Source: Dendrosporobacter quercicolus | GTDB taxonomy: Bacteria > Bacillota > Negativicutes > DSM-1736 > Dendrosporobacteraceae | Length of the DNA stretch: 64,000 nucleotides | NCBI RefSeq assembly: GCF_900104455.1 | Contig: NZ_FNHB01000001.1 | Location: forward strand, 1,257,793 to 1,321,792 | Direction of reading: 5' to 3' | Part shown: positions 6,654 through 46,618 of the stretch, piece after piece | Numbering within the stretch: position 1 is the first letter of the stretch | Layout of the letters: the number at the start of each line of letters is the position of its first letter | Made by a program: the position numbers and the translations under genes | The notes under the pieces: model-generated | Database searches by the model: none | Told to the model about the DNA's origin: nothing | The model's input: only the letters and a program-made list of their open reading frames with translations

Positions 6654-6683
6654 AAGCGTTTATAGCGCTGCTTGCGGCTGGCA

Positions 6684-19976: not shown

Positions 19977-20001
19977 GTGGTAGCCTCCTTTCCTTTCTGT
20001 G

Positions 20002-20724: not shown

Positions 20725-20726
20725 AA

Positions 20727-22327: not shown

Positions 22328-22356
22328 ATTGCCCCACCCCCATAAAAATAACCGCC

Positions 22357-22599: not shown

Positions 22600-22631
22600 A
22601 ATAAAATCCTCCCTTAAATTAAAATAACCGC

Positions 22632-25484: not shown

Positions 25485-25501
25485 GCGTTAGCCTCCTTTC
25501 A

Positions 25502-26167
25502 TTAGTAGTTGGTAACGTCTAAGACCAGGAAACTGGAAGTTTTTCGCTCGTTAAAGTAACCGGAGTTTGTTGTTCCGCTGGTTAAACTGGAAGATAGGTT
25601 TTCCACCTTTGTCTCTATTCTGTCCTCATAAAAATTAAAGACTTGTGCGTCTGATGCTTGCCAAGTATACCAACTCCCTCCCATAATGTCTGTATTGTAC
25701 ATTTCACTATATGTATATACGGAGCCAGCTAATATAGCTGTTTTTATACTTGTATCGTGACTTAATGTTATACCACTCCCGAGATTGTTTGTATGTCTCG
25801 AATCAATAACCCGCATGTATTTGTTGTTTGAATCAAACACAATTTCGCCGTTACTGTTGAATACTTGAAAACCTCCCCCCGAAGATACGGTAGTAGAGTA
25901 ACCAAAACGAAACACCTCAACTACAGCACTTGTGGCAGGTTTGGCGAAAAAACGGATTATACTGCTACCCACATAAATTATAGCGATAGAACTGGTACCC
26001 GTTATTTCTCTAAAAGCGTAAAAACTACTCAAGTCGTTAGGTATCTCTTGTATGTCCAGTGAATTAAAGGAGGATAAAGTTATTTTCTCTATAAATTGTA
26101 AATTCCTAAACTTATCTGTGATTTGCAAAATGTTATTATTGTTATAAACCTCTATCCCTGCTGCCAT
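25502..26167 (-). CDS. fibre-cassette A adaptor / assembly protein (221 aa)
   Basis: Paralogue of 20002..20724 (conserved termini). Confidence 0.5.
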   Translation of the reverse strand: MAAGIEVYNNNNILQITDKFRNLQFIEKITLSSFNSLDIQEIPNDLSSFYAFREITGTSSIAIIYVGSSIIRFFAKPATSAVVEVFRFGYSTTVSSGGGFQVFNSNGEIVFDSNNKYMRVIDSRHTNNLGSGITLSHDTSIKTAILAGSVYTYSEMYNTDIMGGSWYTWQASDAQVFNFYEDRIETKVENLSSSLTSGTTNSGYFNERKTSSFLVLDVTNY

Positions 26168-26482
26168 TCAATACACCCCGTAGATAAATTTTCTACTAAT
26201 AGCTGTCCCTGGAAAAGAACTGCTATAATTCGTAAAGGTCCAAGAAATAGTAGAACCATTTATAAGTATGTCAAATATTTTTTCCTGTTCTGCAATATTT
26301 CTACCCATACTTAAATTCAATATCCAGGGTGTTCCATTAGCTATGTTCGCGTCCGTTATACTTCCGTTCACTGTTCCGGTTTTAAACTCGCCCAAAACCC
26401 TGGTTAACCGGTCTGTTAAATCTAAGGTTAAGTTCCCATTAGCATCCCAGCATTGTAACCCTTGCATATTACCACCGCCCAA
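26168..26482 (-). CDS. small tail protein (104 aa)
   Basis: Paralogue of 20727..21035; overlaps the J-like gene stop. Confidence 0.55.
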   Translation of the reverse strand: MGGGNMQGLQCWDANGNLTLDLTDRLTRVLGEFKTGTVNGSITDANIANGTPWILNLSMGRNIAEQEKIFDILINGSTISWTFTNYSSSFPGTAISRKFIYGVY

Positions 26483-31445: not shown

Positions 31446-31447
31446 TA

Positions 31448-31834
31448 TTACTCACCTCGTGGCACATAAAATCCAATAATATTGCTCTGCCAGCGCTTAA
31501 TCCGGTCAATAATCACACCGGTTTTACTATAGGCGTGGATAAACTTCCCGTTACCAATATATACGCCGACATGATTGGCCCAGCTGACGCAGCTTAACTG
31601 GATGACTACCAGGCAAGGCACTGGCAAGGGTTGCTTTACTTCTACCCAGGCCGGGGCCTCTGTTGCCATTTGGTCGCCAATTTTTTGGGCGTCCATTGCA
31701 GATATTCGGTAATCGGGCAGCTCCCGGCCATAACGCCGGTAAACTTCCAGAGCCATCCCCCAGCAATCGAAGGTTTCCTGGCCTCTGCCGCCGTCTTGAA
31801 AGGGCTGGCCAATAAGATCATCAATTTTTACCAA
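31448..31834 (-). CDS. NlpC/P60-domain tail assembly protein (lambda gpK-like)
   Basis: 128 aa with a Cys-His papain-like core (FDCWGMALEVY ... H); placed between L-like and J-like genes as in lambda. Confidence 0.65.
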   Translation of the reverse strand: MVKIDDLIGQPFQDGGRGQETFDCWGMALEVYRRYGRELPDYRISAMDAQKIGDQMATEAPAWVEVKQPLPVPCLVVIQLSCVSWANHVGVYIGNGKFIHAYSKTGVIIDRIKRWQSNIIGFYVPRGE

Positions 31835-31907
31835 GGAAATAAATACCTCCTATCGAAGGTTGTCCTTAAAGGGAGGTGATGAGGAATGTTGGGATTAAAC
31901 CGCTTAT

Positions 31908-32498
31908 TTAGGCTGATTGCATCCCTTTTTCCCCATTGTAGCGCTCCCTGATTTGACAAGTTGACAGCGTATTGTCGCAGGGTTCTTCATTGCCGGCATA
32001 GCCGCACATAATATCCTTAAAATAATGCGGACAAAAATCCCTGATATACCGCCAAAACGGAAACCGGAAACTGTGATCGTTGGACGCTCCGATATTAAAC
32101 GTTACCCATTGCTCATCATAGTCAGTTTTAATTATGATATAATCCATTTCAAATTCCGGAACGGGATTATCCAAATGGGCCGCATGAACAATCATCAGCT
32201 TAACAGGAGCGTCACAGAAGCCTTTGTGCTGCTGGACATACGTCTGGACCATACCGCCAACATTACTGACCTTGAGGCTAACCGACGGGAGTTCTTTTCC
32301 ATCCTCGCTTGTAATTTTGTCTAAGTCAATCGGGAAACGTATCCACGAGTGACCGTTCCAGGCAATATCCTCATTATTGCGAACCAACCGGATGGGTTCT
32401 GCCAACCCAGGAACGTCCAATTGCACCAACAAGAGAAATGGAGCGTCATTGGCCAGCTTGTTTTTTTCAAGTATGCCCGCAAGGGACCAATTAAGCAT
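31908..32498 (-). CDS. minor tail protein L-like (C-terminal 4-Cys cluster)
   Basis: 196 aa ending CPHYFKDIMCGYAGNEEPCDNTLSTC, reminiscent of the lambda gpL Fe-S motif; synteny. Confidence 0.55.
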   Translation of the reverse strand: MLNWSLAGILEKNKLANDAPFLLLVQLDVPGLAEPIRLVRNNEDIAWNGHSWIRFPIDLDKITSEDGKELPSVSLKVSNVGGMVQTYVQQHKGFCDAPVKLMIVHAAHLDNPVPEFEMDYIIIKTDYDEQWVTFNIGASNDHSFRFPFWRYIRDFCPHYFKDIMCGYAGNEEPCDNTLSTCQIRERYNGEKGMQSA

Positions 32499-32724
32499 AA
32501 AAATGTCTCCTTTTCAAAAGACTGTCACTAAGCAGGAATAAAATAATATGATTTAGCACAACATGGTTGGCGTATCGCCGCCCAGTTCAAAAGTATTGCG
32601 GACAATCCGGATGCCGGTGTCCCGGTCAATCTGAATTTCCAGCAGAATTAGGCCATACCCCGTCTGAGGCCAGCTTGTTCTTTTCCAGGATCGCCACTTT
32701 AGATAAATCAAGGGCCATGGTCGA

Positions 32725-33093
32725 CTATACCTCCTGTAGTTTAAATTCCCCCGAATACTGACCCGGACCAACCAAATCAAACCGTATCTCTCCGCTTATA
32801 AACCGGACTGTAAACACCTTTTTACTATAGGCGTCATCCGGCACCTCAGGATAAGTCCAGTAGAATTCCCGGCTGCCGCCTAGGACGACATCCTTCCAGA
32901 ATGTGCGCAGAGCATGATAGTCCCTCGCCGGCAGAGCCTGCCATTTTAGACGAAAAGTTTCCCTGACCCTGGTAAATTTAGGTCGGGAGACAATGTAGCC
33001 GTTTTCCATTTTGGAAGTTAACGCCGGATCTTCCCACTCGCTGCTGAACGGATAACAAGGCTGCTGTATCTCAGGAAATTCCGGTAAAGTCAT
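32725..33093 (-). CDS. minor tail protein M-like
   Basis: 122 aa; position between the tape-measure-like and L-like genes. Confidence 0.45.
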   Translation of the reverse strand: MTLPEFPEIQQPCYPFSSEWEDPALTSKMENGYIVSRPKFTRVRETFRLKWQALPARDYHALRTFWKDVVLGGSREFYWTYPEVPDDAYSKKVFTVRFISGEIRFDLVGPGQYSGEFKLQEV

Positions 33094-33097
33094 AGTT

Positions 33098-34159
33098 CTA
33101 CCCCCTCGCCCCTATGATATCGCGCATACCGCTGACATTTCGCGCATATGCGTCTAAAAAAATATCGACAACATACTGCCGGCCGTCCCAGTTTATCTGT
33201 CCCTGGCGGGCGCTGGCCTGAACGCCGGTATTGTTAACCACATTAATGGTTACTGCCGGTTCAGCCAAAGAGGCGGCGGACCGGTTAAGTTGATAATTGG
33301 GAACGATTGTTCCGGACGTATGGGGCACAAACAATTCCTTACCTGATTCTCCGACAATCACCGCTTCCTGCCCGCGCACTTCCCCCCCGCTTTGTTCCTG
33401 CTTAATGCCGAAAATCTTATTAATCCATTTGGGAAATTGCTGGGTAACCCACATCTGCAGAGTGACAACCAAAAATTCCTGCGCTAGTTTTTTGATAATT
33501 CCCATAAAACTCTGCCTAAAACTTTCCGCTCCACTGAGCATATTTTGCATATGCCCCTGAATGCTGGCATTCACCCGCTCGACACCGTCTTCTATTAACT
33601 TGGCCTCATCAAGCGGGTTTTTATCTGCTTTTGCTTTGTCAGCCGCACTTTGTTTTTTCTGTACTGCAGTGGTAGTTGCGGGTGTCCCTGATGCAGCAGC
33701 CGATGATACTGCATCATCCACCTTCTGCTCGGCACCGCCCTCTTTGCCAAACCAGTTTTTTATCCTGCCCTGCCACCATTCTTTAAGCACCGGAAGAATA
33801 GTATCCTCCAGCCATACCTGCATGACTACACGTCCCAGTTCATTGCCTGTATTTTGCAGAATTTGCGTAAATCCCTGACGAACCGATTGTTTTCCGTCAA
33901 AAATTCCGCCAATGGCTTCATCAATTTTTTTCTGCAAATTTTCAAAGCCATCCTGAATATGTTTCTCCATCGCCGGAGTCAGCTTTGCACTGCTTGGCTC
34001 CTTGCTGTTATCCGGTATTACCTGAGTCATTTTTTGCAGTGTGGACGCCTGTATTTCCGCTATGTTCTGCATTTTCTCAGTTGTACTTTCCAGGGCAATA
34101 ATATGCTCTTTCTGGTATTCTTCCCATTTGTCCACTGCTGCCGAGGTATCACTGTCCAT
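33098..34159 (-). CDS. tape-measure-like protein (short, 353 aa)
   Basis: Coiled-coil/helical N-terminal half, Gly-rich C-terminus, position 5' of M/L/K/J homologues. Confidence 0.45.
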   Translation of the reverse strand: MDSDTSAAVDKWEEYQKEHIIALESTTEKMQNIAEIQASTLQKMTQVIPDNSKEPSSAKLTPAMEKHIQDGFENLQKKIDEAIGGIFDGKQSVRQGFTQILQNTGNELGRVVMQVWLEDTILPVLKEWWQGRIKNWFGKEGGAEQKVDDAVSSAAASGTPATTTAVQKKQSAADKAKADKNPLDEAKLIEDGVERVNASIQGHMQNMLSGAESFRQSFMGIIKKLAQEFLVVTLQMWVTQQFPKWINKIFGIKQEQSGGEVRGQEAVIVGESGKELFVPHTSGTIVPNYQLNRSAASLAEPAVTINVVNNTGVQASARQGQINWDGRQYVVDIFLDAYARNVSGMRDIIGARG

Positions 34160-34481
34160 TATTATCCCTCCTTATTATGCAAAAGTGCCCGTAGTTCCAA
34201 CTGCCTCAGTTTCTCAAACAAACCTGGCGTTATTTTCATTCGGTAGACGGCCGCGATCCGAAATACCGCGGTATAATCCAGGCCGATCATACCGCCTAAA
34301 CCCACGCGCCATTGGGTGTTTACCAGCCGCCAGAGTTCAAAAACCCGGCGATTGCCCGGACATATTGCCGGGCAACTGCCTTTACAGCCATGACAATTTA
34401 TGGGCTTCGCGGTCTGTTTTTGACGTACGCGGCAGGCCTCACAGTAACTGTTCCGGCCTTCCGCATACCAATCCCAGACCG

Positions 34482-34727
34482 CTATAAGTTTTTTACTTCA
34501 TCCTCTTCCGCCTTAATTGTCAGTTCATAAGTACGATACGCCAGATTGCGGCATTTAGGATAAGGCTGACCAGAGAAATCACAGTCTTGATAAATATTTT
34601 TTAACATCCAGCCGACAATATCGCGTTCACGCTGCGGCGTTATTTTTTGATCCGTAAACATTGGGTCCAGGCCAGCATCGATAAAAGCTTCTCGTTCCGC
34701 ATAAGTCATTGCTCTTGCTCCAGGCAT
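34482..34727 (-). CDS. tail assembly chaperone-like small protein (gpG position)
   Basis: 81 aa ORF between the major tail and tape-measure genes. The 320-nt uncoded gap downstream (34160..34480) could hold a frameshift-extended T part. Confidence 0.35.
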   Translation of the reverse strand: MPGARAMTYAEREAFIDAGLDPMFTDQKITPQRERDIVGWMLKNIYQDCDFSGQPYPKCRNLAYRTYELTIKAEEDEVKNL

Positions 34728-34757
34728 GATATCCTCCCTAACTAAAATTATTTACTT

Positions 34758-35708
34758 TTAAGCATAGCTTTCCACGCTATTGACCAACGTTGCCTTAACA
34801 GCGGTGTGATCCGTATTGCTCTGATAAAAAGCCTGAAAAGGCAAGGAGATCAGCACGCCTGCCGGACCGGTAATGCCTGGCGAACTGCGTTCGTAGAGTA
34901 TTTCCGGAAACAGAAACTCCAGACTATGATTGTTTGCGGCAAAATTCACTTTTAGACTGGACTTTGTTCCGTCCAATGCTTTTTGCAGCAAATCAGGACC
35001 GTCAAACAGCGCGGTAATGCTGCCGCTTATTTTGTATATCCCTGCAGGAATGTCACTGCGGCAGCCGTTATTGCCTATGGTATACTGATTGCCGTCAAGT
35101 CCGGTATTAATCGTAAATTCTCCTTTGGTAACAGTAGCCAGAACAGAGCCGCCCTCTTCCACGCGGCCATGCATGTTATTGAATGCTGCAAAGGGAATAA
35201 CTGCCGGAGTTTCCGCATAAGGAGCCGCTGAAAGCCGTTCCTGTCCGCCCATGATTTCTATGGCGGCGGTTAATTCATCTTCCCCGCCAAACGCCAGTTT
35301 GAATGAGCTGATCTTACAACCATTTAGCAGCACATATTGACCAATATCGGTAAAGCCTTTTTCCAGCACCATGGACGGCTGGGTATTTCCCACCTTAAAA
35401 ACATGTCGATACGGTGCTGCCGCGCCAGTTGTTACAGGATTGCCGAACAGACCTTTAAGCCAATATCCGACAGCACTGTCATCAAGCGGCGTTACAATAC
35501 TGCCGTCTACGCTGACATTGCCGGAAGACGGTTCTACCGGATTGCGCGTGCCGGTTATCGTAGCCGGGTCTTTCATATTCTGCTTGGATTTTACGTCAAA
35601 CGTGTTGAAGGGAAGAACTTTCGCGTTTTTCGACACCGGATTTTGGCCATATACCGTTTCAAAATCCAATAATAGCCTGCCTTGTGCTCCTACTGCCTGT
35701 TTCATCAT
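34758..35708 (-). CDS. major tail (tube) protein candidate
   Basis: 316 aa from ATG 35708 with GGAGGA RBS; first structural gene downstream of the conserved promoter motif at 35862. Confidence 0.5.
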   Translation of the reverse strand: MMKQAVGAQGRLLLDFETVYGQNPVSKNAKVLPFNTFDVKSKQNMKDPATITGTRNPVEPSSGNVSVDGSIVTPLDDSAVGYWLKGLFGNPVTTGAAAPYRHVFKVGNTQPSMVLEKGFTDIGQYVLLNGCKISSFKLAFGGEDELTAAIEIMGGQERLSAAPYAETPAVIPFAAFNNMHGRVEEGGSVLATVTKGEFTINTGLDGNQYTIGNNGCRSDIPAGIYKISGSITALFDGPDLLQKALDGTKSSLKVNFAANNHSLEFLFPEILYERSSPGITGPAGVLISLPFQAFYQSNTDHTAVKATLVNSVESYA

Positions 35709-35861
35709 TATCTTCCTCCAAAATAATTTTTCTTCACCTGCGCCTTCTTTCAGCAGGCTTCTATTCAATGAATGGGGCCAGCCTCACAACCTCCGTTTTA
35801 TCCTGTCCGACCAATATGGCAGATCCGGTTATTATGCCGCCGGGTTGCTGGTATTCAGAAT

Positions 35862-35887
35862 CTCCCTCTATTCTTTATCCGTACAAG
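35862..35887. promoter_or_regulatory. conserved about 24-nt motif copy A (CTCCCTCTATTCTTTATCCGTACAAG), upstream of the structural operon
   Basis: Same motif recurs at 37388..37411 and 37507..37530. Confidence 0.5.
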
Positions 35888-36497
35888 ACAGAGTTGATTT
35901 ATGCAATTCAATTGATGTTTTCTTTTGTTTTTTATAAAAGGATAATAACCAAAGCATACCCGGTCAGGCTGGCAAGTCATACCAATCGGTAACGGGTAAC
36001 CCTAACGGCCTCCCCGTTGAATCATAAAGGCAATAACCTGCAAAATAAACTCCAACTCCAGCCGAAATGTATCCGGCTGTACGATATACGTTGTCAATTC
36101 GTTTATGGGCTGATTTTATCGACTCATGAGCCTGAACGCGCGCCTGGCATGGCGGCACTGTGCAACTACAATATCCATCCCCCCAAGCTTATTTAACTGA
36201 TAATTGCCGCAGGCGGTGGCTGCTGACATTGGCGTCTGTATCATTCCAGTTGTGTTCTTTGGCAATCGCGTTTTTAATGTGCCGAAAGTATTGCGCATAT
36301 CAGCGCTTGACAGAGCGCTGTTGGCCGCAGGCTTATTTGAGTCAAAACCCATTTTTATGACATTCCCGTCACTTAAATCTTCTTACCGGCTTTTATTCTA
36401 TATGCCTCACCCCCTCACTGCCTGCCCTTTCAACAGGATGTTAGTACCGAGGGCCGGGTACTGCGTTCCTTACGAAACCACACACGGCTTTCTCTTT

Positions 36498-36974
36498 TTA
36501 GTGCAGACTGTTCTGGACTAATTTTGCACGTTTATTTAAATAGCTGGTCAGTCTGTTAAACGCCTGACTTGCATGTGAGGCCGCCGTAGCGGCGCTAATG
36601 CCCATAGCGGTACTAATTTCTTTATATTCATAGCCTTGCTGCAAAAGCAGAATTACCCGTTGCTGACGCGGACTTAGGTGCTTAATCCCCTGATCAATAT
36701 CCACAATAATGCACAGCAGCTCCTCTTTTGCCGTTCTGGCTCCTGTTTTCCCTACTCTATCCAGCCTGTTTGCAACATATTCCAACGAACTGCGTACTTG
36801 CTGATATCGTTTAATCGTATTAGCGATTTGCTCACTTCGATAGTCTTCAAATTTTCTTATATCTGCTTTAATCACGCTTACTCTCCTCCTCAAATCAGCC
36901 ATCTGATCAAGTTGCATTGGCTGGACTAACCGGCCTGTCAGCAGCGTTCCCTCTTCACCGAGCTCCGCTTGCAA
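36498..36974 (-). CDS. sigma-70 region-4-containing regulator (phage late sigma factor, Xpf/ECF-like)
   Basis: C-terminal RQQRVILLLQQGYEYKEISTAMGISAATAASHASQAFNRL is a sigma-70 r4 / LuxR-type HTH; 158 aa. Confidence 0.6.
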   Translation of the reverse strand: MQAELGEEGTLLTGRLVQPMQLDQMADLRRRVSVIKADIRKFEDYRSEQIANTIKRYQQVRSSLEYVANRLDRVGKTGARTAKEELLCIIVDIDQGIKHLSPRQQRVILLLQQGYEYKEISTAMGISAATAASHASQAFNRLTSYLNKRAKLVQNSLH

Positions 36975-38127: not shown

Positions 38128-39342
38128 CTACTTAAGGATGGTTTTAATCTGTTGCTGCCTAATCCAGTCGCCTATTTCTTTCCCTTGCAGCTCACCCGGT
38201 GCATCGTTACCCTTTACCGTCTTAATTGCAGCAATATACTCCTCAAAATTCAGTAAACAATCTGGCAGACTTCCATTGTCAACGAGCAGAATATCACTAA
38301 ATCCTTTATCTCCAATAGGATTTTTCTGTAACGCAAGGATAAAATCAACAATTTTACCTTTTTGTTTTAATTTATTGACACGCATATGATGCTGGATGGT
38401 AAACTCTGCGCATGCTATCCACTTATTAGGTAATCCAATATGCTGATCGAACGCCTTTATGGCATCAAGCCCCAACACATCATGCAGATGATGTGTTGGC
38501 AATTTTTCCTTTGGCGTCAGTCCCTTGCCAAGATCATGTGCTAATGCTGCAAATCGAACCTCAACTCTGGGGTTGAGCTCCGAGACACGATCTACAACCT
38601 CCAAGGTATGATTAAAAGCGTCTCCCTCTGGATGATACCGGACGGGCTGTGTCTGTCCAATTAAAGCATGAATTTGAGGATACGTGATATCCAACAAATT
38701 AGCCTGTTGTAATGCTAAGAAAAACAGCGACGGCTTATTCGATTGTAAAGCCTTGTCCAATTCATTAAATAATCGTTCTTTAGGCTCGCTCATTAATTCT
38801 TCCCGGCATTCCTTCATCAACGCAATTGTGGATTCATCAATAAAAAAATTAAACTGCGCTGCTTGTCTCGCTGCTCGCAATGCCCGAATTGGATCATCCT
38901 TGAAATGTTGTGAAGTTGGAAATATCTTTCGTTCAGCAATGTGCTGCTTACCTTGGAATGGATCAATCAGTTCAAGCGTTTGTAAATCAAAGGCAATACT
39001 ATTCATTGTTGTATCTCTGCGATATAAATCATCCCTAATATGGATACTTTTATCAAAGGAAACCTCAACCCCCTTATAACCTGCACCCGTTTTACGTTCC
39101 TGCCTGGCAAATGCAATTTCACAAGACTCGCCATTGATTTCCAGCAAATATACAGGGAAGGAGTTGCCTACTTTAATTGCTTGTGGAAACAATTTATTAA
39201 AGCCCTCTTCGTGCAGACCAGTAATTACATAATCTTTATCTTTAGGAGAAATTCCTCTAATCCAGTCTCTGACCCATCCGCCAACAACATATGCCGCACC
39301 ATGAATACTATTGATTTTTCTTACAAACTCTTTTTCCAGCAT
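38128..39342 (-). CDS. cca: CCA-adding enzyme (tRNA nucleotidyltransferase, class II) with C-terminal HD domain
   Basis: Head motif GGWVRDWIRGISPKDKDYVI (GGxVRD...DxD), PolyA_pol body, HD motif (H...HDLGKG); 404 aa like E. coli Cca. Confidence 0.75.
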   Translation of the reverse strand: MLEKEFVRKINSIHGAAYVVGGWVRDWIRGISPKDKDYVITGLHEEGFNKLFPQAIKVGNSFPVYLLEINGESCEIAFARQERKTGAGYKGVEVSFDKSIHIRDDLYRRDTTMNSIAFDLQTLELIDPFQGKQHIAERKIFPTSQHFKDDPIRALRAARQAAQFNFFIDESTIALMKECREELMSEPKERLFNELDKALQSNKPSLFFLALQQANLLDITYPQIHALIGQTQPVRYHPEGDAFNHTLEVVDRVSELNPRVEVRFAALAHDLGKGLTPKEKLPTHHLHDVLGLDAIKAFDQHIGLPNKWIACAEFTIQHHMRVNKLKQKGKIVDFILALQKNPIGDKGFSDILLVDNGSLPDCLLNFEEYIAAIKTVKGNDAPGELQGKEIGDWIRQQQIKTILK

Positions 39343-39363: not shown

Positions 39364-40413
39364 CTAATTGTTAACTGAATAGCCTTCTGCAGATGTTCTT
39401 TCATCCAGCATCGTAAGCAATTGTTTCTGTTTTGCTATGCGCCCGATCAATTGTTCTTTGAAGTGTTCGGGACCAATCACTTTAATAACAGGCCCAAAAG
39501 AAAGCAGGGTTATGAGTAGTTCCATCTCATCGACCTCATAATAATAAATTTTCATTAGACATCTTTTAGTATTTTCATCGTATTCGGAAACACGCTCAAA
39601 GTTGGATAATTGGGTAAAGATTCGTTCAAAACCGTTACGCTCATTTGTAATCTCAATCTCTACTGGTAGTGGCATACGAAGGCTTCTAACATAACTAGCA
39701 AGATTTTCTGGTCTATGATTATCCATGATTTCCACCGAACGCATCCGGGAAAGATTTAGTTTATAGAGGCTTCTCATTCTACCTTGCCTGACTCGTATCC
39801 CGCATAGTCTAAATTTGTCATCCTTAATAGAATACTCTAGCTTATAAGGAGCAAAGTATCCGGAAAGGCGGTTACCTTTGCCACTTTCATAGGTGATGAG
39901 AATAATTTTATTATCTTGTATACCCTGCATGATTGATTTAAAAATCAATCTGTATTCCTTGCTTTCGTAGTCATCACCGTCATTGGCCATATCGACCGTT
40001 ATAAAATGCCGACTATCATACAGAGGTTCAACATTGGAAAGCAGTTCTTCATAAAGCTGATATTGACTTTCATCGATAAACAGCAAAAAGCGTTTATCTT
40101 TCACAATTGCTCGCATCCACCGTTTTTGGTACTCCGTCAGTAAAAAGGGGGGATCGCCTTTTAAAACCGGCCTATATCCAGAGGACTCTTCATTCAGTAC
40201 ATAATAGCCTTCCCCATTAACATTTAGTAATTTAGCGGGCAGGGTTAGCGCGGTTTCGGCAAAACCCAACTTAGCAACTATCCCAGCAATATCCTTACTA
40301 TGCAGACTGCCTACGGAAGCGGCTTTTAGAATTTCACTTATAATATAAAAATACCGGCTATGTATTTCATTAAAAATTCCCAAAACAAAACCGTCCCTTT
40401 CGCCTAATCGCAC
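39364..40413 (-). CDS. WYL-domain protein (PafB/PafC-like)
   Basis: ...IILITYESGKGNRLSGYFAPYKLEYSIKDDKFRLCGIRVRQGRMRSLYKLNLSRMRSVEI... matches the WYL-domain core (xRxFRLDRI-type). Confidence 0.5.
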   Translation of the reverse strand: MRLGERDGFVLGIFNEIHSRYFYIISEILKAASVGSLHSKDIAGIVAKLGFAETALTLPAKLLNVNGEGYYVLNEESSGYRPVLKGDPPFLLTEYQKRWMRAIVKDKRFLLFIDESQYQLYEELLSNVEPLYDSRHFITVDMANDGDDYESKEYRLIFKSIMQGIQDNKIILITYESGKGNRLSGYFAPYKLEYSIKDDKFRLCGIRVRQGRMRSLYKLNLSRMRSVEIMDNHRPENLASYVRSLRMPLPVEIEITNERNGFERIFTQLSNFERVSEYDENTKRCLMKIYYYEVDEMELLITLLSFGPVIKVIGPEHFKEQLIGRIAKQKQLLTMLDERTSAEGYSVNN

Positions 40414-40452
40414 ATACCATACAAGTCGTTAACTAATTTGACACGCTCACCG

Positions 40453-41709
40453 CTATGCATCATACAAGCTTGCCATTCGGTCAATATCGTCAATAAACCG
40501 CTGAATGACTGGTTGATTCGATCCTTTGACAGATATAATCCGTCCGATAAAGGTTCGAAGCCAAGGAACCATTTCCATAATGTCAAACACTTCATTCCGG
40601 TAGGCAAAGGTATGATCTCCTATTTTTTCAATTGTGCCATTTTTCCCTTCTCTTTTCAGTCTTGCAAGAACATATCCTTCCCTTATCTCATCAATATGAA
40701 GAATTACTTCAACTTTCTCCATCTGCGTTTTTTTGCCAAGGGCTACTCCCCATGAAAAAGGCAGCCTGGTTTCAAGTTCTGCTGATTTTGCTTCATACAT
40801 ATCACTTACCTCTAAAATTTCAAGATTTTTAATATAGTCCAAACGATAGGAAAGCAGCCTGCGCATCCTAAGATTATAAGCCAGCAAAAATCTTCGTCCA
40901 TGCCTTACATTGGTAGCAATTTTTAGCGGAAGCACAGTTTCCACTGAATGGGTCTTAGACCGAGAACTGCAGTTCTCAAAACGTACGCTTTTTTGGCAAT
41001 CCATTGCATTCGCAATCCTAATCACTACCTCATCATCCAGTGTGTGTGACATGAAGATATGCCGAAAGGAAAACACATCTTCTCTTTTGCCTCTATCCCG
41101 TCGAATAAAGTAGCCCAAAACCCCAGCGGGAACAACATTCTCAAAAAGCTGCAAAGCAGATAGAAGGTTGTTTATTACAGAAGGACCGACTTGATCGAAC
41201 AGGTTTTGATTTATGGAATAGTGCAAAGTTTTACCTTTTTTCTCGGTTCTGAATAAACCAGCAGCAGTATATTCATTGAGCTTATTACGAATTGTCATAA
41301 CATCCAGCTCATAATCATTAAAACAAGACAGGTACTGCTCACTTAAAAAAACTGTCACATCTTTCGCTGTTAAGCCAGGATTTTCTCTTAGTATATCAGG
41401 CAGGCAAAAATGCAATAGACAATCATTCTTAGTAAAAGATTTTGCCTCCCACATGGCAAAGAGAGGATTACTGGAAATATCCGAGGTATCTGTGCTGATA
41501 TATATATTTTTCCCCCGGGGATTCATTTCCCATTTGATGTATCCAGAAAGATAGCTCTCTATTCTTCGTCTTTCATTGTCGTAGCTTCTACCGCTCTTTC
41601 TGGTGTAATCATTTCTACATTTATAACCGTACACAAAAAAATCTCTAGTATAGTCTCTTATTTTATCAAAGTTCTTGATTAATTCCGTAAATCCGGCCAT
41701 GTCTATCAC
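40453..41709 (-). CDS. WYL-domain protein (second paralogue of a PafBC-like pair)
   Basis: ...HGRRFLLAYNLRMRRLLSYRLDYIKNLEIL... WYL core; 418 aa; tandem with the previous gene and divergent from rtcB. Confidence 0.5.
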   Translation of the reverse strand: MIDMAGFTELIKNFDKIRDYTRDFFVYGYKCRNDYTRKSGRSYDNERRRIESYLSGYIKWEMNPRGKNIYISTDTSDISSNPLFAMWEAKSFTKNDCLLHFCLPDILRENPGLTAKDVTVFLSEQYLSCFNDYELDVMTIRNKLNEYTAAGLFRTEKKGKTLHYSINQNLFDQVGPSVINNLLSALQLFENVVPAGVLGYFIRRDRGKREDVFSFRHIFMSHTLDDEVVIRIANAMDCQKSVRFENCSSRSKTHSVETVLPLKIATNVRHGRRFLLAYNLRMRRLLSYRLDYIKNLEILEVSDMYEAKSAELETRLPFSWGVALGKKTQMEKVEVILHIDEIREGYVLARLKREGKNGTIEKIGDHTFAYRNEVFDIMEMVPWLRTFIGRIISVKGSNQPVIQRFIDDIDRMASLYDA

Positions 41710-41838
41710 CCTTACATTTTGGTTGTTTTAATCATATCATCCTAATAATAATTGTCAACGACGCAACGAAGTTCGCAAACTTTTTTTAATGATACCTGAT
41801 AATTTCCTATGGTAAATTATAGGCAAGGAGATGATTTC

Positions 41839-43075
41839 ATGTATACAATTTATGACAAACAAAAAAATAGCCATCCCATAAAGGTCTGGCTGAGTGATGA
41901 GGATATTATAGAAGAAGGATGCTTAGAGCAAGCTACTAACCTATCCAATCTTCCTTTTATACATAAATGGGTCGCCCTAATGCCAGATACACATACTGGA
42001 AAAGGTATGCCAATCGGCGGTGTGATTGCTACAGATGGCGTAGTCAGCCCCAATGCTGTCGGTGTGGATATCGGATGCGGCATGGCTTGTATACAAACCA
42101 ATATTGAAGCTGCATTTCTCAAAAATACCACTACACCTAACGGTTCATTGCTGCAGGGTATCATTGGCGACATCCTGCGAAATATCCCTTTAGGATTCAG
42201 ACATCATAAGAAGCAGCAAACCTCGTCGACAATAGATACAGCATTATCTAATATAGATAAATACTCTTTTGCAAAAGATCTGATTCCAGAAATAGAGCAG
42301 AGCTACTACCAAATCGGCACCTTAGGTGGCGGCAATCATTTCATTGAACTGCAGGAAGATGAAGATGGCATGGCAGCTATTATGCTGCACTCCGGCAGCA
42401 GACATCTGGGACACCAAATCTGTAAGTTTTTCCACTCGGTGGCAAGAGAACATAACCAACAATGGTTCTCTCTTGTACCCGACCAACTACCAACTTGCTT
42501 TTTTGCCTGTGGATAGTATGGAAGGTCAATCCTATATTGATTGGATGAATTTAGCATTGTCATTTGCTCGGGAAAACAGGGATCGAATGATGAGTGATAT
42601 AACAAGAATGATAGACGGCTGGGTCATCCGTTCCGGAGGTATACAACCGGAGTATTCCAGCTATATTAACTGCCATCATAATTACGCCGCTATTGAAAAT
42701 CACTACGGCAAAAATGTCTGGGTTCACAGAAAAGGCGCCATTAGAGTACGTGAAGGCGATACTGGCATTATACCTGGCGCCATGGGCTCTTACAGTTATC
42801 TTGTCGAAGGCAAAGGTAATGCGGAAAGTTTTACTTCATGCTCTCATGGCGCAGGACGCCGTATGTCAAGAACCAAAGCCAGGGAAAGTTTCTCTGTCGA
42901 AGAAGTAATAACAGATTTGAAAAGCGGTGGTGTTGTTCTTGGTAAAAACAGCAAAGCTGATATCGCAGAAGAATCACGCTATTCCTATAAGGATATTGAT
43001 ACTGTTATTGCAAATGAGCTTGATCTTATCGCACCGGTAAAAAAACTGTGTACGATCGGTGTAGTTAAAGGTTGA
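41839..43075 (+). pseudogene. rtcB: RtcB RNA 3'-phosphate ligase, interrupted by a frameshift near 42455-42490
   Basis: All RtcB hallmarks present (LMPDTHTGKG, GVDIGCGM, GGGNHFIELQ, HSGSRHLGHQ, NCHHNYA, HRKGA, CSHGAGR) but split over two frames (ORFs 41809..42516 and 42326..43075). Confidence 0.85.
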
Positions 43076-43149
43076 AGCCCTTACGATTGGAAGTATATTT
43101 TACGATATATTTTACCGTTTACTTTTCATGCTAAGGTTTCAAAAGCCTG

Positions 43150-43310
43150 GCGGTGCCCGCAGCTCTGCTGCAGGGTATACCGAAGGAACGGTCTGAACTG
43201 AAGTGTCGGAGGTTCGACTCCTCCACCGTAGCTGCTACGGTTAACTCAGCGGTAGAGTCTTCATTGGTAAATTCCCTTTGGGAATGGGGTTCGACTCCCC
43301 ACATGAAAAA
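43150..43310 (+). ncRNA. tRNA-like non-coding element(s): two T-arm consensus hairpins plus a D-arm-like hairpin; not a canonical tRNA
   Basis: GGAGG-TTCGACT-CCTCC (43209..43225) and TGGGG-TTCGACT-CCCCA (43286..43302). ACTC-AGCGGTA-GAGT D-arm-like hairpin (43242..43260). Palindrome ACCGTAGC-t-GCTACGGT (43226..43242) that could pair as an acceptor-like stem. Confidence 0.4.
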
Positions 43311-43610
43311 GACCTGTTAAGTCTTTCCTTTTTAAACACCTGGATCAAAGGAATTCCCTGCGTATTTCGCGGCTAACCGCAAAGTACGCAGCAGGCTTTG
43401 GCTCTGTGATTTTGAGGATACGCATAAGTCAGCTGCGCTCAAGACTGTCAAGAGATCAGGCGTATGCCTATACTCTTTGCATTCTTCGGTACAGTAAGCC
43501 TTGATGCTGAATCAAAGTTCCGCTAAAAAGTCTGTGGGGATTCCTGAGAGAAGGGCACAACAATGATATTCATAACTTTTCTCATATTTTTATTCAAAGG
43601 AGAATCCATT

Positions 43611-44720
43611 ATGCGAATAACAATTAGAGACCATGAACGGGGCATACTCTTTAAAGATGGTAACTATAGAGGAAAATTAAAACCCGGGAAACATTTTATA
43701 ATACCATTTTCTCAAACTAAAGTAGAAATTCTGGATATAACCAAACCATTTTACATTGCTGGTTATCATTTAGATCTGTTTTTGCAAGATGCTGATCTAT
43801 GCAGCGAGCTTATTATTATCAATGTAACAGATAAGGAAATCGCCTTTCATTATGTTGATGATAAATTTCAAGAGGTTCTTAGCACTGGAAAGCATGCTTT
43901 TTGGACATCGTTAGAAAAGCATACTTTTACAGTTGTTACAATAAGCAATCCAGAAATTAAAGATCCCATAGACAAGGACCTCCTTGCTCTGCCTCAACTT
44001 AAGCCTTACTGTGGAATATATGATATTGAACCACATATGAAGGGCATACTGTTTTTCAATAACATCCTGCAGCGTACCCTTGAACCAGGCAGACATTATT
44101 TTTGGCTTGGTTTCAACAAGATCGATATTACTAAGGTGGATATACGCAAACGCGAAATCGAAATTAACGGCCAGGAAATTATGACAGAAGACAAAGTGCC
44201 ACTGCGGTTTAATTTCGTTTGTCAATATAAAATAGCCGATGCCTTAAAAGTAGTAGTAGAAATGAAAGACTACGAGCAACAACTATACATCCTGCTGCAG
44301 CTTATTCTGCGCGAATACGTGGGAACACGTAAGCTTGACGACCTTTTAAAGATGAAACAGGAGATTGCTGCCTATGTATTAAAAGCCCTTCAAGAAAAAG
44401 GACAGGATTACGGCGTAGAATTTCTGTTTGCTGGTGTGAAAGATATTATCCTTCCTGGTGAAATTAAGGATATTTTAAATACAGTCCTGATTGCTGAAAA
44501 AAAAGCCCTTGCTAACGTGATTACACGCCGGGAGGAAACGGCATCAACCAGAAGTCTGTTAAATACCGCCAAACTGATGGAAGAAAATCAAACCCTCTTC
44601 CGTCTTAAGGAACTAGAATTCTTAGAGAAGATCTGCGATAAAATCGGTCATATTTCTTTAACTGGCAATAGCAGTCTGCTTGAACAATTGAATTCACTAC
44701 TTGCCATTAAGAATCCATGA
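43611..44720 (+). CDS. SPFH/band-7 (stomatin/flotillin-like) domain protein
   Basis: ATG 43611 after AAAGGAGAA; N-terminal ERGILFKDGNYRGKLKPGKHFIIPF (E.GVV.RFGK...L.PGLHF.IPF type), repeated at MKGILFFNN...LEPGRHYFW; SPFH core and C-terminal helical region. Confidence 0.65.
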   Translation: MRITIRDHERGILFKDGNYRGKLKPGKHFIIPFSQTKVEILDITKPFYIAGYHLDLFLQDADLCSELIIINVTDKEIAFHYVDDKFQEVLSTGKHAFWTSLEKHTFTVVTISNPEIKDPIDKDLLALPQLKPYCGIYDIEPHMKGILFFNNILQRTLEPGRHYFWLGFNKIDITKVDIRKREIEINGQEIMTEDKVPLRFNFVCQYKIADALKVVVEMKDYEQQLYILLQLILREYVGTRKLDDLLKMKQEIAAYVLKALQEKGQDYGVEFLFAGVKDIILPGEIKDILNTVLIAEKKALANVITRREETASTRSLLNTAKLMEENQTLFRLKELEFLEKICDKIGHISLTGNSSLLEQLNSLLAIKNP

Positions 44721-44823: not shown

Positions 44824-45822
44824 TTAAAGCATTTTTTCATAAATACAGATGAGAAGCTCCTCCGCTGCCTTGTGGTTAGGTTCATCCGGTAGAACCGTAT
44901 TTTGCGCCGCATATTTGAATTCAGCCTCTAATTTATCAACGGCAGCAAAAATCTCTTCATAGTTAAAATTCCCGCTTCTAATCTCTAAAAGATAATCCCT
45001 CTCAGCAGCTCTATAGGTATGTATCCCCTTCCCCTGAAGTATCTCTGAACCTGTAATCAGAAGCCGAATCAGATGCATCGCATGTTTATTCAATTTCAAT
45101 GCATCTTTCTTTTTATTGCGGTGATTCAATTGGGAATAATCCTTAACTACATTGCTCATCTCTGAGTAAATCGATTTGAAATCCCTCAAAGGATAGTGCT
45201 TCAAGTTGATATCCATAAAAATCTCCGCTTCATAATCCTCTTTGTTGGACTTATCGATATACAGGTGAATGTCTTCATTCATAAATTGTTGGTATTTTTG
45301 CTTAAAATGATGCATCTGTCCCTGTATACTATTTAACATATGCTGTTCCTTTACTGCTTGGGGATAACTGTCTCGGGCCAGTGCATTTTGAAGCCGTCTT
45401 AGCTGGGCAGTGGCATAATTCCCAAAGCTCTGAATCACTCTCTTTGATAGAAATAGGTCTGCATGATCGCGCAGGCATTTGCCTTCCTCGGTTAAAATCA
45501 ACAGATGATCTTCGCGAGTGCCTAGCATCTCTAAAATATTAGGGTTTCCAGCCAGAGCAAGGTTTATGGTCTTGCGGAGACCATAAATTACCGTATCAGT
45601 AACACGGTCTTCAAACTGCTCAAAGTTTGACAGACCTAAAAGTTCTTCTTTTCGTTCTGCAGCAACCCCTCGAATATCAGTGTCGCTGGTTTCCACATGA
45701 GTACCATAGGCATATGAACCTCCTGTGGTCAGTAGAATAATTCTATCACCAAGATTCTTGTTCTTTCGCAGGAAATCATATTCTGTGCTATTTATTTTAT
45801 TTCTGATGTTTTGAATATCCAT
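44824..45822 (-). CDS. Pol-beta-fold nucleotidyltransferase (COG3541/YcgL-like family), paralogue 1
   Basis: LLTTGGSYAYGTHVETSDTDIRGV = hG[GS]...[DE]hD NTase motif, followed by a helical domain. Confidence 0.6.
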   Translation of the reverse strand: MDIQNIRNKINSTEYDFLRKNKNLGDRIILLTTGGSYAYGTHVETSDTDIRGVAAERKEELLGLSNFEQFEDRVTDTVIYGLRKTINLALAGNPNILEMLGTREDHLLILTEEGKCLRDHADLFLSKRVIQSFGNYATAQLRRLQNALARDSYPQAVKEQHMLNSIQGQMHHFKQKYQQFMNEDIHLYIDKSNKEDYEAEIFMDINLKHYPLRDFKSIYSEMSNVVKDYSQLNHRNKKKDALKLNKHAMHLIRLLITGSEILQGKGIHTYRAAERDYLLEIRSGNFNYEEIFAAVDKLEAEFKYAAQNTVLPDEPNHKAAEELLICIYEKML

Positions 45823-45829
45823 AACGTCT

Positions 45830-46618
45830 TCAGCTAGATGTATTTTCTCCAGCCCAAGCCTCCTTTACCATCGTGCAAAACAATGCATCTAATGCTGCTT
45901 TTTCTGGATGATCTTTTCTGGGTAAAAAACGAATTTCATCTTCATAATAAGCAATGGTTTCGTTAAAATACTGATATAACTGATGATCGATTGGCTCAAT
46001 ATCGGATTCTGTGCTGATAAGCTTTCGCTCCATCAGACGGTCTATTTCCACCCGAATATCCGCTTCAATTTTTAGGCCAGCCAATAACTTATGAAGCTCC
46101 ATAGGTGCCATCGTTTGGTATGTATCAATCCATCTGCAGGCCATAAGAGGTCTTAACACATAAAAATACTTCTTAATTCTAACCTGCTTCGTTATAATTA
46201 TTTCCTGAAATGTCTTTTTTGCCAAGTTTAAATAATGATGGAGCGAAGGCACTGGCAAAAAATATTCCCTGCTCAATGCTCTAAGCTTCTCGGCCAAGGA
46301 GTGTTCATCTCTATACACAATAGGTGAACTCAGCCATTCCATGAGTGGTGGATTGGATTTTCGGTATAATCTTAGCGCTTTTCGAATGTCCCAGCCATTA
46401 ATATCTAAAAGACTATTGATGGGTACCTCTATATAATCCTTGTGATCCTCAATACTAAGATATCCTGATAACGGGCGAATATAAATAAAGCGCACATCAT
46501 AGTCGCTATCTTTAGAAGCAAATCCCCAACCCCGGCTGCCAGACTCAACAGCATATAAAATTTTAACCCCGTTTTCTGATTCAATCCGGGCTAATTCATC
46601 GGTTATTTCCCTAAGCAT
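45830..46618 (-). CDS. Pol-beta-fold nucleotidyltransferase (COG3541/YcgL-like family), paralogue 2
   Basis: LYAVESGSRGWGFASKDSDYDVRFIY NTase motif; 262 aa. Confidence 0.6.
   Translation of the reverse strand: MLREITDELARIESENGVKILYAVESGSRGWGFASKDSDYDVRFIYIRPLSGYLSIEDHKDYIEVPINSLLDINGWDIRKALRLYRKSNPPLMEWLSSPIVYRDEHSLAEKLRALSREYFLPVPSLHHYLNLAKKTFQEIIITKQVRIKKYFYVLRPLMACRWIDTYQTMAPMELHKLLAGLKIEADIRVEIDRLMERKLISTESDIEPIDHQLYQYFNETIAYYEDEIRFLPRKDHPEKAALDALFCTMVKEAWAGENTSS

Follow-up and report, generated by a model that had tools for sequence, protein, structure and literature searches.

The locus raises the question of what kind of RNA lies on the plus strand between the RNA-ligase gene rtcB and a stomatin-like Band-7 gene of Dendrosporobacter quercicolus, and what it does there. 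The window, i.e., the whole stretch of DNA analysed, is 64,000 nt long. An earlier note on it had described two T-arms with T-loops 77 nt apart, a D-arm-like hairpin, and a 17-nt palindrome just after rtcB, and had read them as a circularly permuted, possibly YrlA-like element that is not an ordinary tRNA gene. It had seen no Ro60 gene and had proposed a tRNA finder, Rfam models, and covariation in homologous loci as checks. The rtcB gene is represented by two ORFs (41809–43075, plus strand), and Pfam RtcB matches both halves. According to the alignment with two Pelosinus loci (L001 and L002), in which rtcB is in a single frame, the frame is broken by a 1-nt insertion after 42482; given the frameshifted rtcB, the repair island in the Dendrosporobacter genome may be decaying. 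The Band-7/SPFH (slipin) gene is at 43611–44720 on the plus strand (Pfam Band_7), and its homologs start at the same ATG. Besides RtcB, two RlaP proteins, a CCA-adding/repair-like NTase-HD protein, and two WYL regulators are coded in the neighbourhood, and phage tail genes are in the window at 16.6–36 kb. WYL domains were the sole matches in PADLOC, with no known defence system identified.

The tRNA-like module 1 occupies positions 43199–43263 on the plus strand, in the order V loop, T-arm 1, closed acceptor hairpin, U8 and A9, D-arm, and C26. The V loop (43203–43207) reads GUGUC. T-arm 1 (43208–43224, GGAGG-TTCGACT-CCTCC) has a 5-bp stem and the loop UUCGACU, and it is followed by the 17-nt palindrome ACCGTAGCTGCTACGGT at 43225–43241 (ACCGUA-GCUGC-UACGGU). 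The palindrome mimics an acceptor stem and is closed by a loop, with no free 5' or 3' end, discriminator base, or CCA. The dinucleotide TA (U8-A9; 43242–43243) lies between it and the D-arm, ACUC-AGCGGUA-GAGU, at 43244–43258. All of these parts are where the earlier note had drawn them, and the permuted order (T-arm, acceptor 3' strand, acceptor 5' strand, D-arm) held as well, as all five helices covary and the nucleotides of the tertiary contacts are kept. The anticodon-like stem had been missed. It is made of the flanks, with 43199–43202 paired with 43260–43263; there are four pairs in the window and a C-U mismatch at the fifth position (4–5 bp overall), and module 1 has no anticodon loop of any kind. 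On the comparative evidence, the region 43199–43263 folds as a circularly permuted tRNA body with every nucleotide that the L shape requires. With its acceptor end closed and no CCA, such an RNA can be neither aminoacylated nor decoded. The identity and fold of the element as a permuted tRNA mimic are considered highly probable.

Comparison of homologous loci carries most of this assignment. Across the 24 pairs of the five helices in 23 sequences, 98.2% of cells are paired and both partners have changed in 15 pairs; 500 shuffles gave no result as good, and slid alignments were 42–53% paired. T-arm 1 is 100% paired with two compensatory pairs, the acceptor mimic is 97% paired with five of its six pairs compensatory, and the D-arm is 100% paired. 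The acceptor strands pair across a loop of 3–6 nt in every sequence. Nucleotides U8, A14, G18, G19, A21, T54, Psi55, C56, and A58 are invariant in the 23 sequences, and the tertiary contact G15:C48 is present in 20 of them. A Paenibacillus form, consisting of a T-arm, a closed acceptor, a D-arm, and an anticodon-like arm, was aligned from 47 sequences and is 94% paired, with compensatory changes in 14 of 19 pairs. The covariance model built from homologs (R1) has a single match in the window, at 43189–43308 (92.2 bits, E = 3e-19). The pattern GGTTCRANTCC occurs twice in the 64-kb window, both times at the element (0.25 expected); the tRNA-like features at this locus exceed chance. Two small ORFs overlie the element (43131–43304 on the minus strand, 57 aa; 43153–43320 on the plus strand, 55 aa) and were rejected as coding sequences, since compensatory substitutions in the helices favour RNA.

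Module 1 belongs to a larger structured RNA, about 470 nt long and all on the plus strand, of which the earlier note had also missed the 5' hairpin, the hairpin at 43308–43326, and the 217-nt rod. The 5' hairpin P1 (43151–43182) has conserved strands GCGGUGCC and GGUAUACCG, with 87.8% of cells paired and seven pairs changed on both sides; its motif is present in 72 of 78 loci. A linker hairpin, AUUCCC-UUU-GGGAAU, at 43271–43285 is restricted to the Negativicutes clade, being found in the window, L001, L002, and L004 and missing from the other 19 sequences. T-arm 2 (43286–43300, GGGG-TTCGACT-CCCC) has a helix 98.9% paired and a possible fifth pair, T43285:A43301. Its T-loop is identical to that of T-arm 1 and exactly 77 nt distant. 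The location of T-arm 2 had been given correctly, with its origin left unexplained: it opens a second permuted module, of which Clostridia have the full form and the window a reduced one. A second model, R2, scores 44–64 bits on module 2 of Clostridia and matches the window at module 1 only.

The hairpin at 43308–43326, AAAGAC-CUGUUAA-GUCUUU, is followed by CCUUUUU and has a folding energy of −3.7 kcal/mol. Its 7-nt loop has the anticodon-loop form C-U-NNN-A-A, which was also found in 47 anticodon-like arms; at the same position, L001 and L002 have the loop CUUUCAA. An intrinsic terminator was considered here and rejected, as the hairpin has this low stability with two G-C pairs, neither terminator scan calls it, and L004 has no U-run. 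Also rejected was a mascRNA-like mini-tRNA in which UUCAU (43260–43264) pairs with AUGAA (43303–43307), the pairing being broken in L001 and missing in L004; the Rfam mascRNA match at 43260–43307 is weak (18.5 bits, E = 0.59). The mascRNA family is eukaryotic and resembles the window RNA in having a tRNA-shaped module within a longer transcript. Domain B (43339–43555) is a rod-like imperfect hairpin of 217 nt with an MFE of −84.5 kcal/mol and z = −5.0. It is closed by helices 43339–43345/43549–43555 and 43349–43358/43536–43545 and bears a side hairpin (43361–43389) and a conserved GGAUACG box; in the form GGAUA(C/U)CG, the box is present in 71 of 78 loci. Its centroid is close to the MFE structure, its helices (10–18 of the alignment) covary, and no Rfam family matched domain B. 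Domain A folded alone has z = −2.2 and is thermodynamically unremarkable.

This RNA travels with the Band-7 gene. Among 80 related loci, 73 have it 5' of Band-7 and on the same strand (R1 or R2 match less than 900 nt upstream), at a distance of 300–550 nt; in the window, the RNA extends over 43151–43555 and the gene begins at 43611. The link is independent of the side of Band-7 on which rtcB lies, and the architecture spans Negativicutes, Clostridia, and Bacilli (Paenibacillaceae, Thermoactinomycetaceae). With the RtcB halves of the window as tblastn queries, rtcB was found at most 7 kb away in 43 of the 80 loci; the remaining 37 may have another ligase or none. A candidate sigma-70 promoter between rtcB and the RNA (TTGAAG-16-TATATT, 43072–43099, plus strand) came from a consensus scan and is weak, with 9 of 12 consensus matches and shuffles scoring as well; clostridial loci have a conserved TATACT box at a similar position. 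A phage origin of the RNA was rejected, as neither the RNA nor the Band-7 protein had a match among 50,697 phage records.

Several known kinds of RNA or tRNA remnant were weighed as explanations. In the window and the 80 homologous upstream regions alike, ARAGORN identified neither a tRNA nor a tmRNA, and the view of the earlier note that this is not an ordinary tRNA gene was thus borne out; a canonical tRNA was rejected also for its missing free acceptor ends and anticodon arm. At gathering thresholds, no Rfam family was found in the window, and in 14 related loci there were only marginal partial tRNA matches spanning the D-arm and T-arm 2; matches to the Rfam tRNA model were sub-threshold or marginal, partial, and without the anticodon arm. 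A tmRNA, including the two-piece form, was rejected, the Rfam tmRNA model scoring just 8.2 bits in L019 and ARAGORN being negative. Permuted tRNA genes of Cyanidioschyzon merolae are processed via a circular intermediate to normal tRNAs whose acceptor ends are free and carry CCA. In them the 3' half precedes the 5' half. The window RNA has the same order, which would suit a permuted or split tRNA gene, or a two-piece tmRNA, maturing to a working adaptor. Such a gene is nevertheless extremely improbable here: unlike the Cyanidioschyzon junctions, the one found here is a conserved closing loop of only 3–6 nt that offers no discriminator base, CCA, or processing signal, an anticodon loop is missing from module 1, and the finder was negative throughout. 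Debris of decayed tandem tRNA genes, or of tRNA 3' ends duplicated at a phage attachment site, would agree with the identical T-loops and the phage tail genes of the window, and patterns of this kind do pick up tandem tRNA genes falsely. It is hardly credible, given that the architecture recurs at the corresponding site upstream of Band-7 across several classes of Bacillota and shows compensatory changes and invariant tertiary-contact nucleotides; decay would not keep the acceptor strands paired over their loop in all sequences.

The resemblance to YrlA needs closer weighing. YrlA, a Y RNA of the tRNA-like type, is encoded in the rsr-yrlBA-rtcBA operon of Salmonella and in over 250 further bacteria and phages (Chen et al. 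2014; Wang et al. 2018, 10.1101/312249). Its Rfam model (RF02553) gave the best match in the window, at 43179–43285, with 40.5 bits (E = 1.9e-7) against a gathering score of 69; L019 scored 42.7 bits (E about 1e-7), and none of the 14 related loci reached the gathering score. YrlA is recognized by T and D stem-loops that hardly vary, by an acceptor-like stem-loop set between these two, and by the possibility of tRNA tertiary contacts; all of these features are present. Common to both RNAs are the permuted series of V region, T-arm, closed acceptor stem-loop, and D-arm, the position of the anticodon stem made from the flanks, the tRNA tertiary-contact nucleotides, and the location in an RtcB repair operon. 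The V region of the window RNA is a loop of 4–5 nt, whereas that of YrlA is a stem-loop, and unlike YrlA, the window RNA is joined to a second T-arm and the 217-nt rod, 5' of Band-7. A true YrlA-type RNA whose Ro60/Rsr partner has its gene elsewhere in the genome would explain the top match, the permuted topology, and the RtcB neighbourhood, but it is very improbable. Apart from the low score, no window ORF of at least 380 aa has a TROVE domain, and tblastn with four Pfam-checked or related Ro60 proteins found no match either in the window or in the 80 related loci (1.15 Mb), in accord with the absence of a Ro60 gene noted earlier; Chen et al. (2014) found YrlA at most about 4 kb from rsr and on its strand. 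The motif GNCGAAN0-1G near the 5' end is not conserved (ACCGAAG in the window, ACCAAAG in L002, ACCGGGAA or GCCUGAAA in Clostridia), and the flanks form no Ro-binding stem, the outer stems being unpaired (NC marks) in the Rfam YrlA alignment. The YrlA-like reading of the earlier note therefore stands for the permuted topology and the best Rfam match and fails for strict membership: the element is YrlA-like in form and outside the strict YrlA family. It is probably YrlA-like also in function.

A metagenome scan with an RNA-only pattern recovered mostly tandem tRNA genes and Ro60-linked YrlA. A TROVE gene adjoins 12 of its 25 closed-acceptor matches, compared with none of the window and the 80 Band-7 loci; the one Band-7 case in the scan (L174) consists of a tRNA array with a truncated tRNA behind it. 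The scan confirms the split between Ro60 and Band-7 contexts and gives no independent measure of the Band-7 link. A class that suits this context has been predicted. Burroughs and Aravind (2016, NAR), as described in Wang et al. (2018, 10.1101/312249), predicted a Band-7-associated tRNA-like RNA (b7a-tRNA) beside RtcB, and the latter account also states that YrlA occasionally adjoins Band-7. A tRNA-like RNA beside a Band-7/SPFH gene and an association with RtcB are both found here, rtcB adjoining in the window. The Band-7-associated tRNA-like RNA class is the better label for the element, matched through the description in Wang et al. (2018) only; there, the b7a-tRNA is said to resemble authentic tRNA strongly, whereas the present RNA is permuted and none of its 81 copies was called by the tRNA finder. 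The RNA is a member of a computationally predicted class of RNA-repair helpers, and hence of no new kind. The Y RNA Yrn1 of Deinococcus radiodurans, which binds Rsr and tethers PNPase, is comparable by its description to the Paenibacillus and Clostridia modules in having a T-arm together with a hairpin that resembles an anticodon arm and has a 5-bp stem; unlike module 1, it has no full D-arm.

The favoured explanation, held with moderate confidence, makes the element the tRNA-shaped part of a non-coding RNA that is encoded in the operon, always accompanies the gene of a cytoplasmic Band-7/SPFH (slipin) protein in RtcB RNA-repair islands, and would act as an RNP cofactor. The RNA would be co-transcribed with the operon rtcB-RNA-band7, in the manner of YrlA in Salmonella rsr-yrlBA-rtcBA. 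The rod and the 5' hairpin would bind a Band-7 oligomer, Band-7 taking the place that Ro60 has for Y RNAs, and the tRNA-shaped module would recruit neighbouring tRNA-recognising enzymes or compete for them, namely RtcB, the CCA-adding/repair-like NTase-HD protein, and the two RlaP nucleotidyltransferases. As an RNP cofactor, it would present a tRNA shape to the repair enzymes. This tether or cofactor mechanism is drawn by analogy and is tentative. The substrate or decoy role put forward in the earlier note is likewise conjectural. A search of the PDB for solved RNP relatives of Band-7 returned stomatins only, which are membrane proteins without RNA.

The same position would suit a cis-acting sensor in the leader of the band-7 mRNA. 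The tRNA mimic would be its bait, and cleavage of the bait by an anticodon nuclease, or its binding or repair by RtcB or a tRNA enzyme, would alter the leader and with it the expression of Band-7 (in Clostridia, also of RtcB), or cleavage would release a fragment with a 2',3'-cyclic phosphate for the WYL regulators to sense. The RNA is directly 5' of band-7 on the same strand, its sequence conservation extends to about 50 nt before the Band-7 ATG, and between RNA and gene there is neither a separate promoter nor a terminator consistent across 31 loci; because of this arrangement, a cis-acting leader fits equally well. In the anticodon-like arms, the C-U-NNN-A-A loop is constant and its triplet varies (UUU, UCC, UUC, GUU, UAA, GAA, GUC), and in one close Paenibacillus group variation touches four of the seven loop positions and 2 of the other 60 in the module (p = 6e-4), although relaxed constraint could also explain this variability. 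Salmonella provides evidence on both sides, as tRNA fragments switch on its Rtc operon, but its anticodon nuclease did not cleave YrlA (PMC7790460). Neither a terminator/antiterminator pair nor Shine-Dalgarno sequestration could be drawn, a candidate sequestration helix being only 80% paired in the alignment and not formed in the window, and a riboswitch-type leader is disfavoured because no such expression platform was found. Moreover, the window RNA is downstream of rtcB and cannot act on it in cis, and module 1 has no anticodon loop. A cis sensor is on balance rather unlikely. A still more doubtful possibility is that the RNA of about 470 nt is an undescribed structured class serving as a tripwire for tRNA-targeting toxins, in which fast-changing 'anticodons' would bait anticodon nucleases, and cleavage, or repair by RtcB and the nucleotidyltransferases, would signal via Band-7 or WYL. 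In the window, the bait would be the hairpin at 43308–43326, with CUGUUAA versus CUUUCAA in sister species.

RtcB repair operons are widespread in bacteria, and to our knowledge YrlA is the sole tRNA-like cofactor of them that has been studied. The anatomy of the present RNA is now defined, with a closed acceptor, an invariant elbow, a rod domain, and an anticodon-like arm that is optional and varies in its triplet, and the Band-7 protein is a candidate partner. The family is missing from Rfam; the alignments and models A5, A8, R1, and R2 could seed a new family there, and the models could annotate hundreds of genomes in which an 'intergenic' stretch of 0.5 kb is now blank. The locus shows a second, Ro60-independent lineage of the tRNA-mimic design, strongly conserved across several classes of Bacillota.

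The element lies within the 535 nt that separate rtcB (41809-43075) from a Band-7/SPFH "slipin" gene (43611-44720). It comprises T-arm 1 at 43208-43224 (GGAGG-TTCGACT-CCTCC), the palindrome ACCGTAGCTGCTACGGT at 43225-43241, TA and next to it a D-arm-like hairpin ACTC-AGCGGTA-GAGT at 43244-43258, and T-arm 2 at 43286-43300 (GGGG-TTCGACT-CCCC), whose loop lies exactly 77 nt after that of T-arm 1, all as described in the earlier note. The motif GGTTCRANTCC has two sites in the 64-kb window, both being these T-arms, with 0.25 expected. No tRNA or tmRNA was identified in the window by ARAGORN, and no tRNA in any of the 80 loci gathered from GTDB genomes through Band-7 alignment, in agreement with the opinion that this is not an ordinary tRNA gene. 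No Rfam family was matched in the window at gathering thresholds. Under relaxed settings the sole meaningful match was YrlA (RF02553) at 43179-43285, with 40.5 bits (gathering score 69) and E = 1.9e-7; the alignment is good over the T-arm, closed acceptor stem-loop and D-arm, and poor over the outer stems.

The covariance model R1, built from 23 sequences, has 109 positions and 24 pairs and takes in the permuted tRNA-like module (module 1) together with T-arm 2. Its single match in the window is at 43189-43308 (92.2 bits, E = 3e-19); another 23 loci score 84-121 bits. In A5, the model-guided alignment used for pair statistics, standard pairs occupy 98.2% of cells and 15 of 24 pairs changed on both sides, which is the covariation in homologous loci that the earlier note had asked about. 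The observed pairing and change values were reached in 0 of 500 shuffles, and partners slid by 1-3 columns paired in only 42-53%. These comparisons support all five helices, i.e., an anticodon-like stem made from the flanks, T-arm 1, the closed acceptor hairpin, the D-arm, and T-arm 2. The anticodon-like stem occurs as CCUUA/UAAGG, CUGAA/UUCAG, CCGAA/UUCGG, and CCGGA/UUCGG, and the acceptor hairpin as ACCGUAG/CUACGGU, AUUACU/AGUAAU, AUCACC/GGUGAU, and AUUGCC/GGCGAU. In tRNA numbering, all 23 sequences share U8, A14, G18, G19, A21, T54, Psi55, C56, and A58 without exception and have a purine at position 57, and 20 of them have the Levitt pair G15:C48. Because the helices are supported and these positions invariant, 43199-43263 is a complete tRNA body in permuted order (positions 39-43, V, T-arm, 66-72, closing loop, 1-7, 8-9, D-arm, 26, 27-31). 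The order T-arm/acceptor/D-arm had thus been read essentially right, and support for the feature as real is strong.

Downstream of T-arm 2, Clostridia have a second closed acceptor-like hairpin AUCAGAU-gaagg-AUCUGAU, a miniature D-arm GCUA-ugguu-UAGC, and an anticodon-arm-like hairpin CUCGA-N7-UCGAG. Paenibacillus has one module only, with T-arm, closed acceptor hairpin, U-A, D-arm, A, and CUCGA-N7-UCGAG, which is a tRNA permuted at the junction of anticodon stem and variable loop. R2, a covariance model of this single-module form, gave 54-91 bits in Paenibacillus and 44-64 bits for the Clostridial module 2; over 47 sequences of the form, pairing holds in 94% of cells and compensatory change is seen at 14 of 19 pairs. 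Since Clostridia carry the second module whole and R2 matched only module 1 in the window (37 bits), the window's T-arm 2 is where a second module begins, one that Negativicutes and Thermoactinomycetaceae have in reduced form. This modular view is supported by naturally occurring variants. At L008:3921-4042, T-arm 1 is fused to T-arm 2, with the acceptor hairpin and D-arm deleted; in L014:1666-1805 and L017:102-243, about 70 nt are inserted behind T-arm 1. L050 and L054 (about 6480-6850) have other sequence in place of both the T-loop hairpin and the D-loop, the latter being exchanged for a UUCG tetraloop, as expected if the T- and D-loops work as a docked pair.

The anticodon-like arms have 7-nt loops that retain the form C-U-NNN-A-A (or -A-C, -C-A) with a variable triplet (UUU 14, UCC 9, UUC 5, GUU 4, UAA 3, GAA 3, GUC 2, and others). 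In one close Paenibacillus group, four of seven loop positions vary, versus two of 60 in the rest of the module (Fisher p = 6e-4). The triplet differs even among very close relatives (GAA, UUU, UUC), the remainder of the 76-nt module being almost identical (A8 alignment columns 96-102; L021:6623-6699, L026:6622-6698, L027:6620-6696). The stem CUCGA/UCGAG of this arm is nearly invariant over several classes of Bacillota. In the window, a hairpin AAAGAC-CUGUUAA-GUCUUU with the same loop form, followed by CCUUUUU, lies at 43308-43326; P. propionicus and a Pelosinus MAG have CUUUCAA at its loop site. With this modest support, it is possibly an anticodon-arm mimic. As a terminator it is weak (-3.7 kcal/mol), was called by neither terminator scan, and its U-run is absent in locus L004. 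Metagenomic locus L174 (1-2260) has a tRNA array (Arg, Lys, Pro, Tyr, Leu) and then a truncated tRNA-Lys-like piece, with D-arm and anticodon arm CUACA-CUUUUAA-UGUAG, about 370 nt 5' of a distant Band-7 homolog (42% identity). This arrangement is either chance or a hint of how such mimics originate.

Conservation begins about 60 nt 5' of the first helix and ends about 50 nt short of the Band-7 start codon. RNAalifold and pair counting gave 120 pairs overall, 88% paired and 84 changed on both sides, the structure being derived from the same alignment. Two additional elements are supported by this analysis. The 5' hairpin at 43151-43182 has strands GCGGUGCC and GGUAUACCG, and domain B, a rod of 217 nt at 43339-43555 between the tRNA mimic and the Band-7 start, is conserved and covaries in 20 sequences. 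Domain B of the window folded alone reached -84.5 kcal/mol (z = -5.0), with a centroid nearly identical to the MFE structure, and matched no Rfam family. Of 78 loci, 71 have its GGAUA(C/U)CG box and 72 the 5' motif; in a control stretch within the gene, the counts were 3 and 2. In 31 loci, no consistent terminator was recognized between RNA and Band-7. No structure sequestering the Shine-Dalgarno sequence was found. A short box occurs in two similar copies, GGGUAUACCG at 43173-43182 in the 5' hairpin and GAGGAUACG at 43415-43422 in domain B (Clostridial versions GGUAUACCGG and GCGGAUACCGG); one protein may bind both copies, or the copies may be alternative partners in pairing.

Relatives of the Band-7 protein number in the thousands; identity of the window to P. 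propionicus is 94%. T-arm and D-arm motifs were found 300-550 nt 5' of the Band-7 start in nearly all 80 loci, and the RNA is directly 5' of Band-7 whichever side rtcB takes (upstream in Negativicutes and many Paenibacillus, downstream in Clostridia). Sporomusa acidovorans (L003, 6480-7000) has a Band-7 homolog of 78% identity that lacks both a tRNA-like RNA upstream and an rtcB within 7 kb, and the RNA is therefore not universal in this protein family. Homologs begin at 43611 (MRITIR...), with Shine-Dalgarno AGGAG 8 nt upstream; an upstream in-frame ATG (43563-43610) would lengthen the ORF by 16 codons (MIFITFLIFLFKGESI). Encoded on the minus strand are a CCA-adding/repair-like nucleotidyltransferase with HD domain (38128-39342), two WYL-domain regulators (39364-41709), and two RlaP nucleotidyltransferases (44824-46618). 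Compared with the one-frame gene of two Pelosinus relatives, rtcB has a 1-nt insertion after 42482 (42476-42490; extra C in GACCAACTAC) that splits it into ORFs 41809-42516 and 42326-43075, being either a pseudogene or an assembly error. The box GTTCGCAAACTTTTTTT at 41771-41787 is upstream of rtcB in the window; its Clostridial counterpart, within the palindrome AAGTTTGCAAC-N9-GTTGCAAACTT (L019, about 6400-6440), is upstream of the RNA, which is there the first operon element. The box may serve as a WYL-regulator operator or as a promoter element, and its positions suggest that the operon transcript includes the RNA. Directly flanking the RNA-repair island is a phage-tail-like cluster (16602-36000) with tail tube, minor tail protein L, NlpC/P60, a tip-attachment-J-like protein (1658 aa), and two fibre proteins with S74 chaperone domain. 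No capsid genes were identified among the ORFs examined, and the cluster could be a prophage remnant or a tailocin. A sigma-70-type factor is coded at 36498-36974.

The fold, closed acceptor end, strict Band-7 linkage, lack of Ro60, and tRNA-end-repair enzyme neighbours are established. RlaP adds one or two nucleotides onto damaged RNA 3' ends and was required to regain aminoacylation of repaired tRNAs after excessive damage (PMC12776372). The RNA would be produced from the operon transcript, like YrlA in rsr-yrlBA-rtcBA, its rod and 5' hairpin may bind the Band-7 oligomer, and the tRNA-shaped module may recruit tRNA-recognising enzymes or compete for them. A cis-acting or bait function, as the main rival, is rather unlikely. 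A functional permuted tRNA is very improbable: the acceptor end is shut by a 3-6-nt loop, without discriminator base and CCA, and therefore the RNA cannot be charged. Debris is hardly credible beside the paired changes in A5.

A true YrlA is also very unlikely. YrlA is next to rsr and has a GNCGAAN0-1G motif with Ro-binding stem, T and D stem-loops, and an acceptor-like stem-loop between them (Chen et al. 2014). The likeness proposed earlier holds for the permuted topology, both the T and the D stem-loop and the intervening acceptor-like stem-loop, but the rsr neighbour and the motif with Ro-binding stem are missing and the Rfam score is below threshold. As the earlier note had stated, no Rsr/Ro60 gene was recognized: window ORFs of at least 380 aa have no TROVE domain, and none of four Ro60 proteins from metagenomic YrlA loci (two Pfam-checked) gave a tblastn match in the window. 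An RNA-only pattern scan of metagenomes gave 126 matches, 25 with a closed acceptor helix; a TROVE gene was on the fetched stretch in 12 of these 25 versus none of the 81 Band-7 loci, which places the tRNA-mimic design in two separate protein contexts. In some metagenomic Ro60 (TROVE + vWA) loci, a tandem pair of YrlA-type closed-acceptor modules lies upstream of rsr (L113:1524-1840; L139, 2771-3090, reverse strand; L099:1702-3470), with rtcB nearby in L113 and L139. According to Wang et al. (10.1101/312249), YrlA occasionally adjoins Band-7, and a tRNA-like RNA with Band-7, next to RtcB, is a prediction of Burroughs and Aravind (2016) without validation. Matched through that description, the element belongs to this known, predicted class of Band-7-associated tRNA mimics; its fold, conservation, and extra domains are documented here. 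Rfam lacks this class, whose anatomy is unusually rich.
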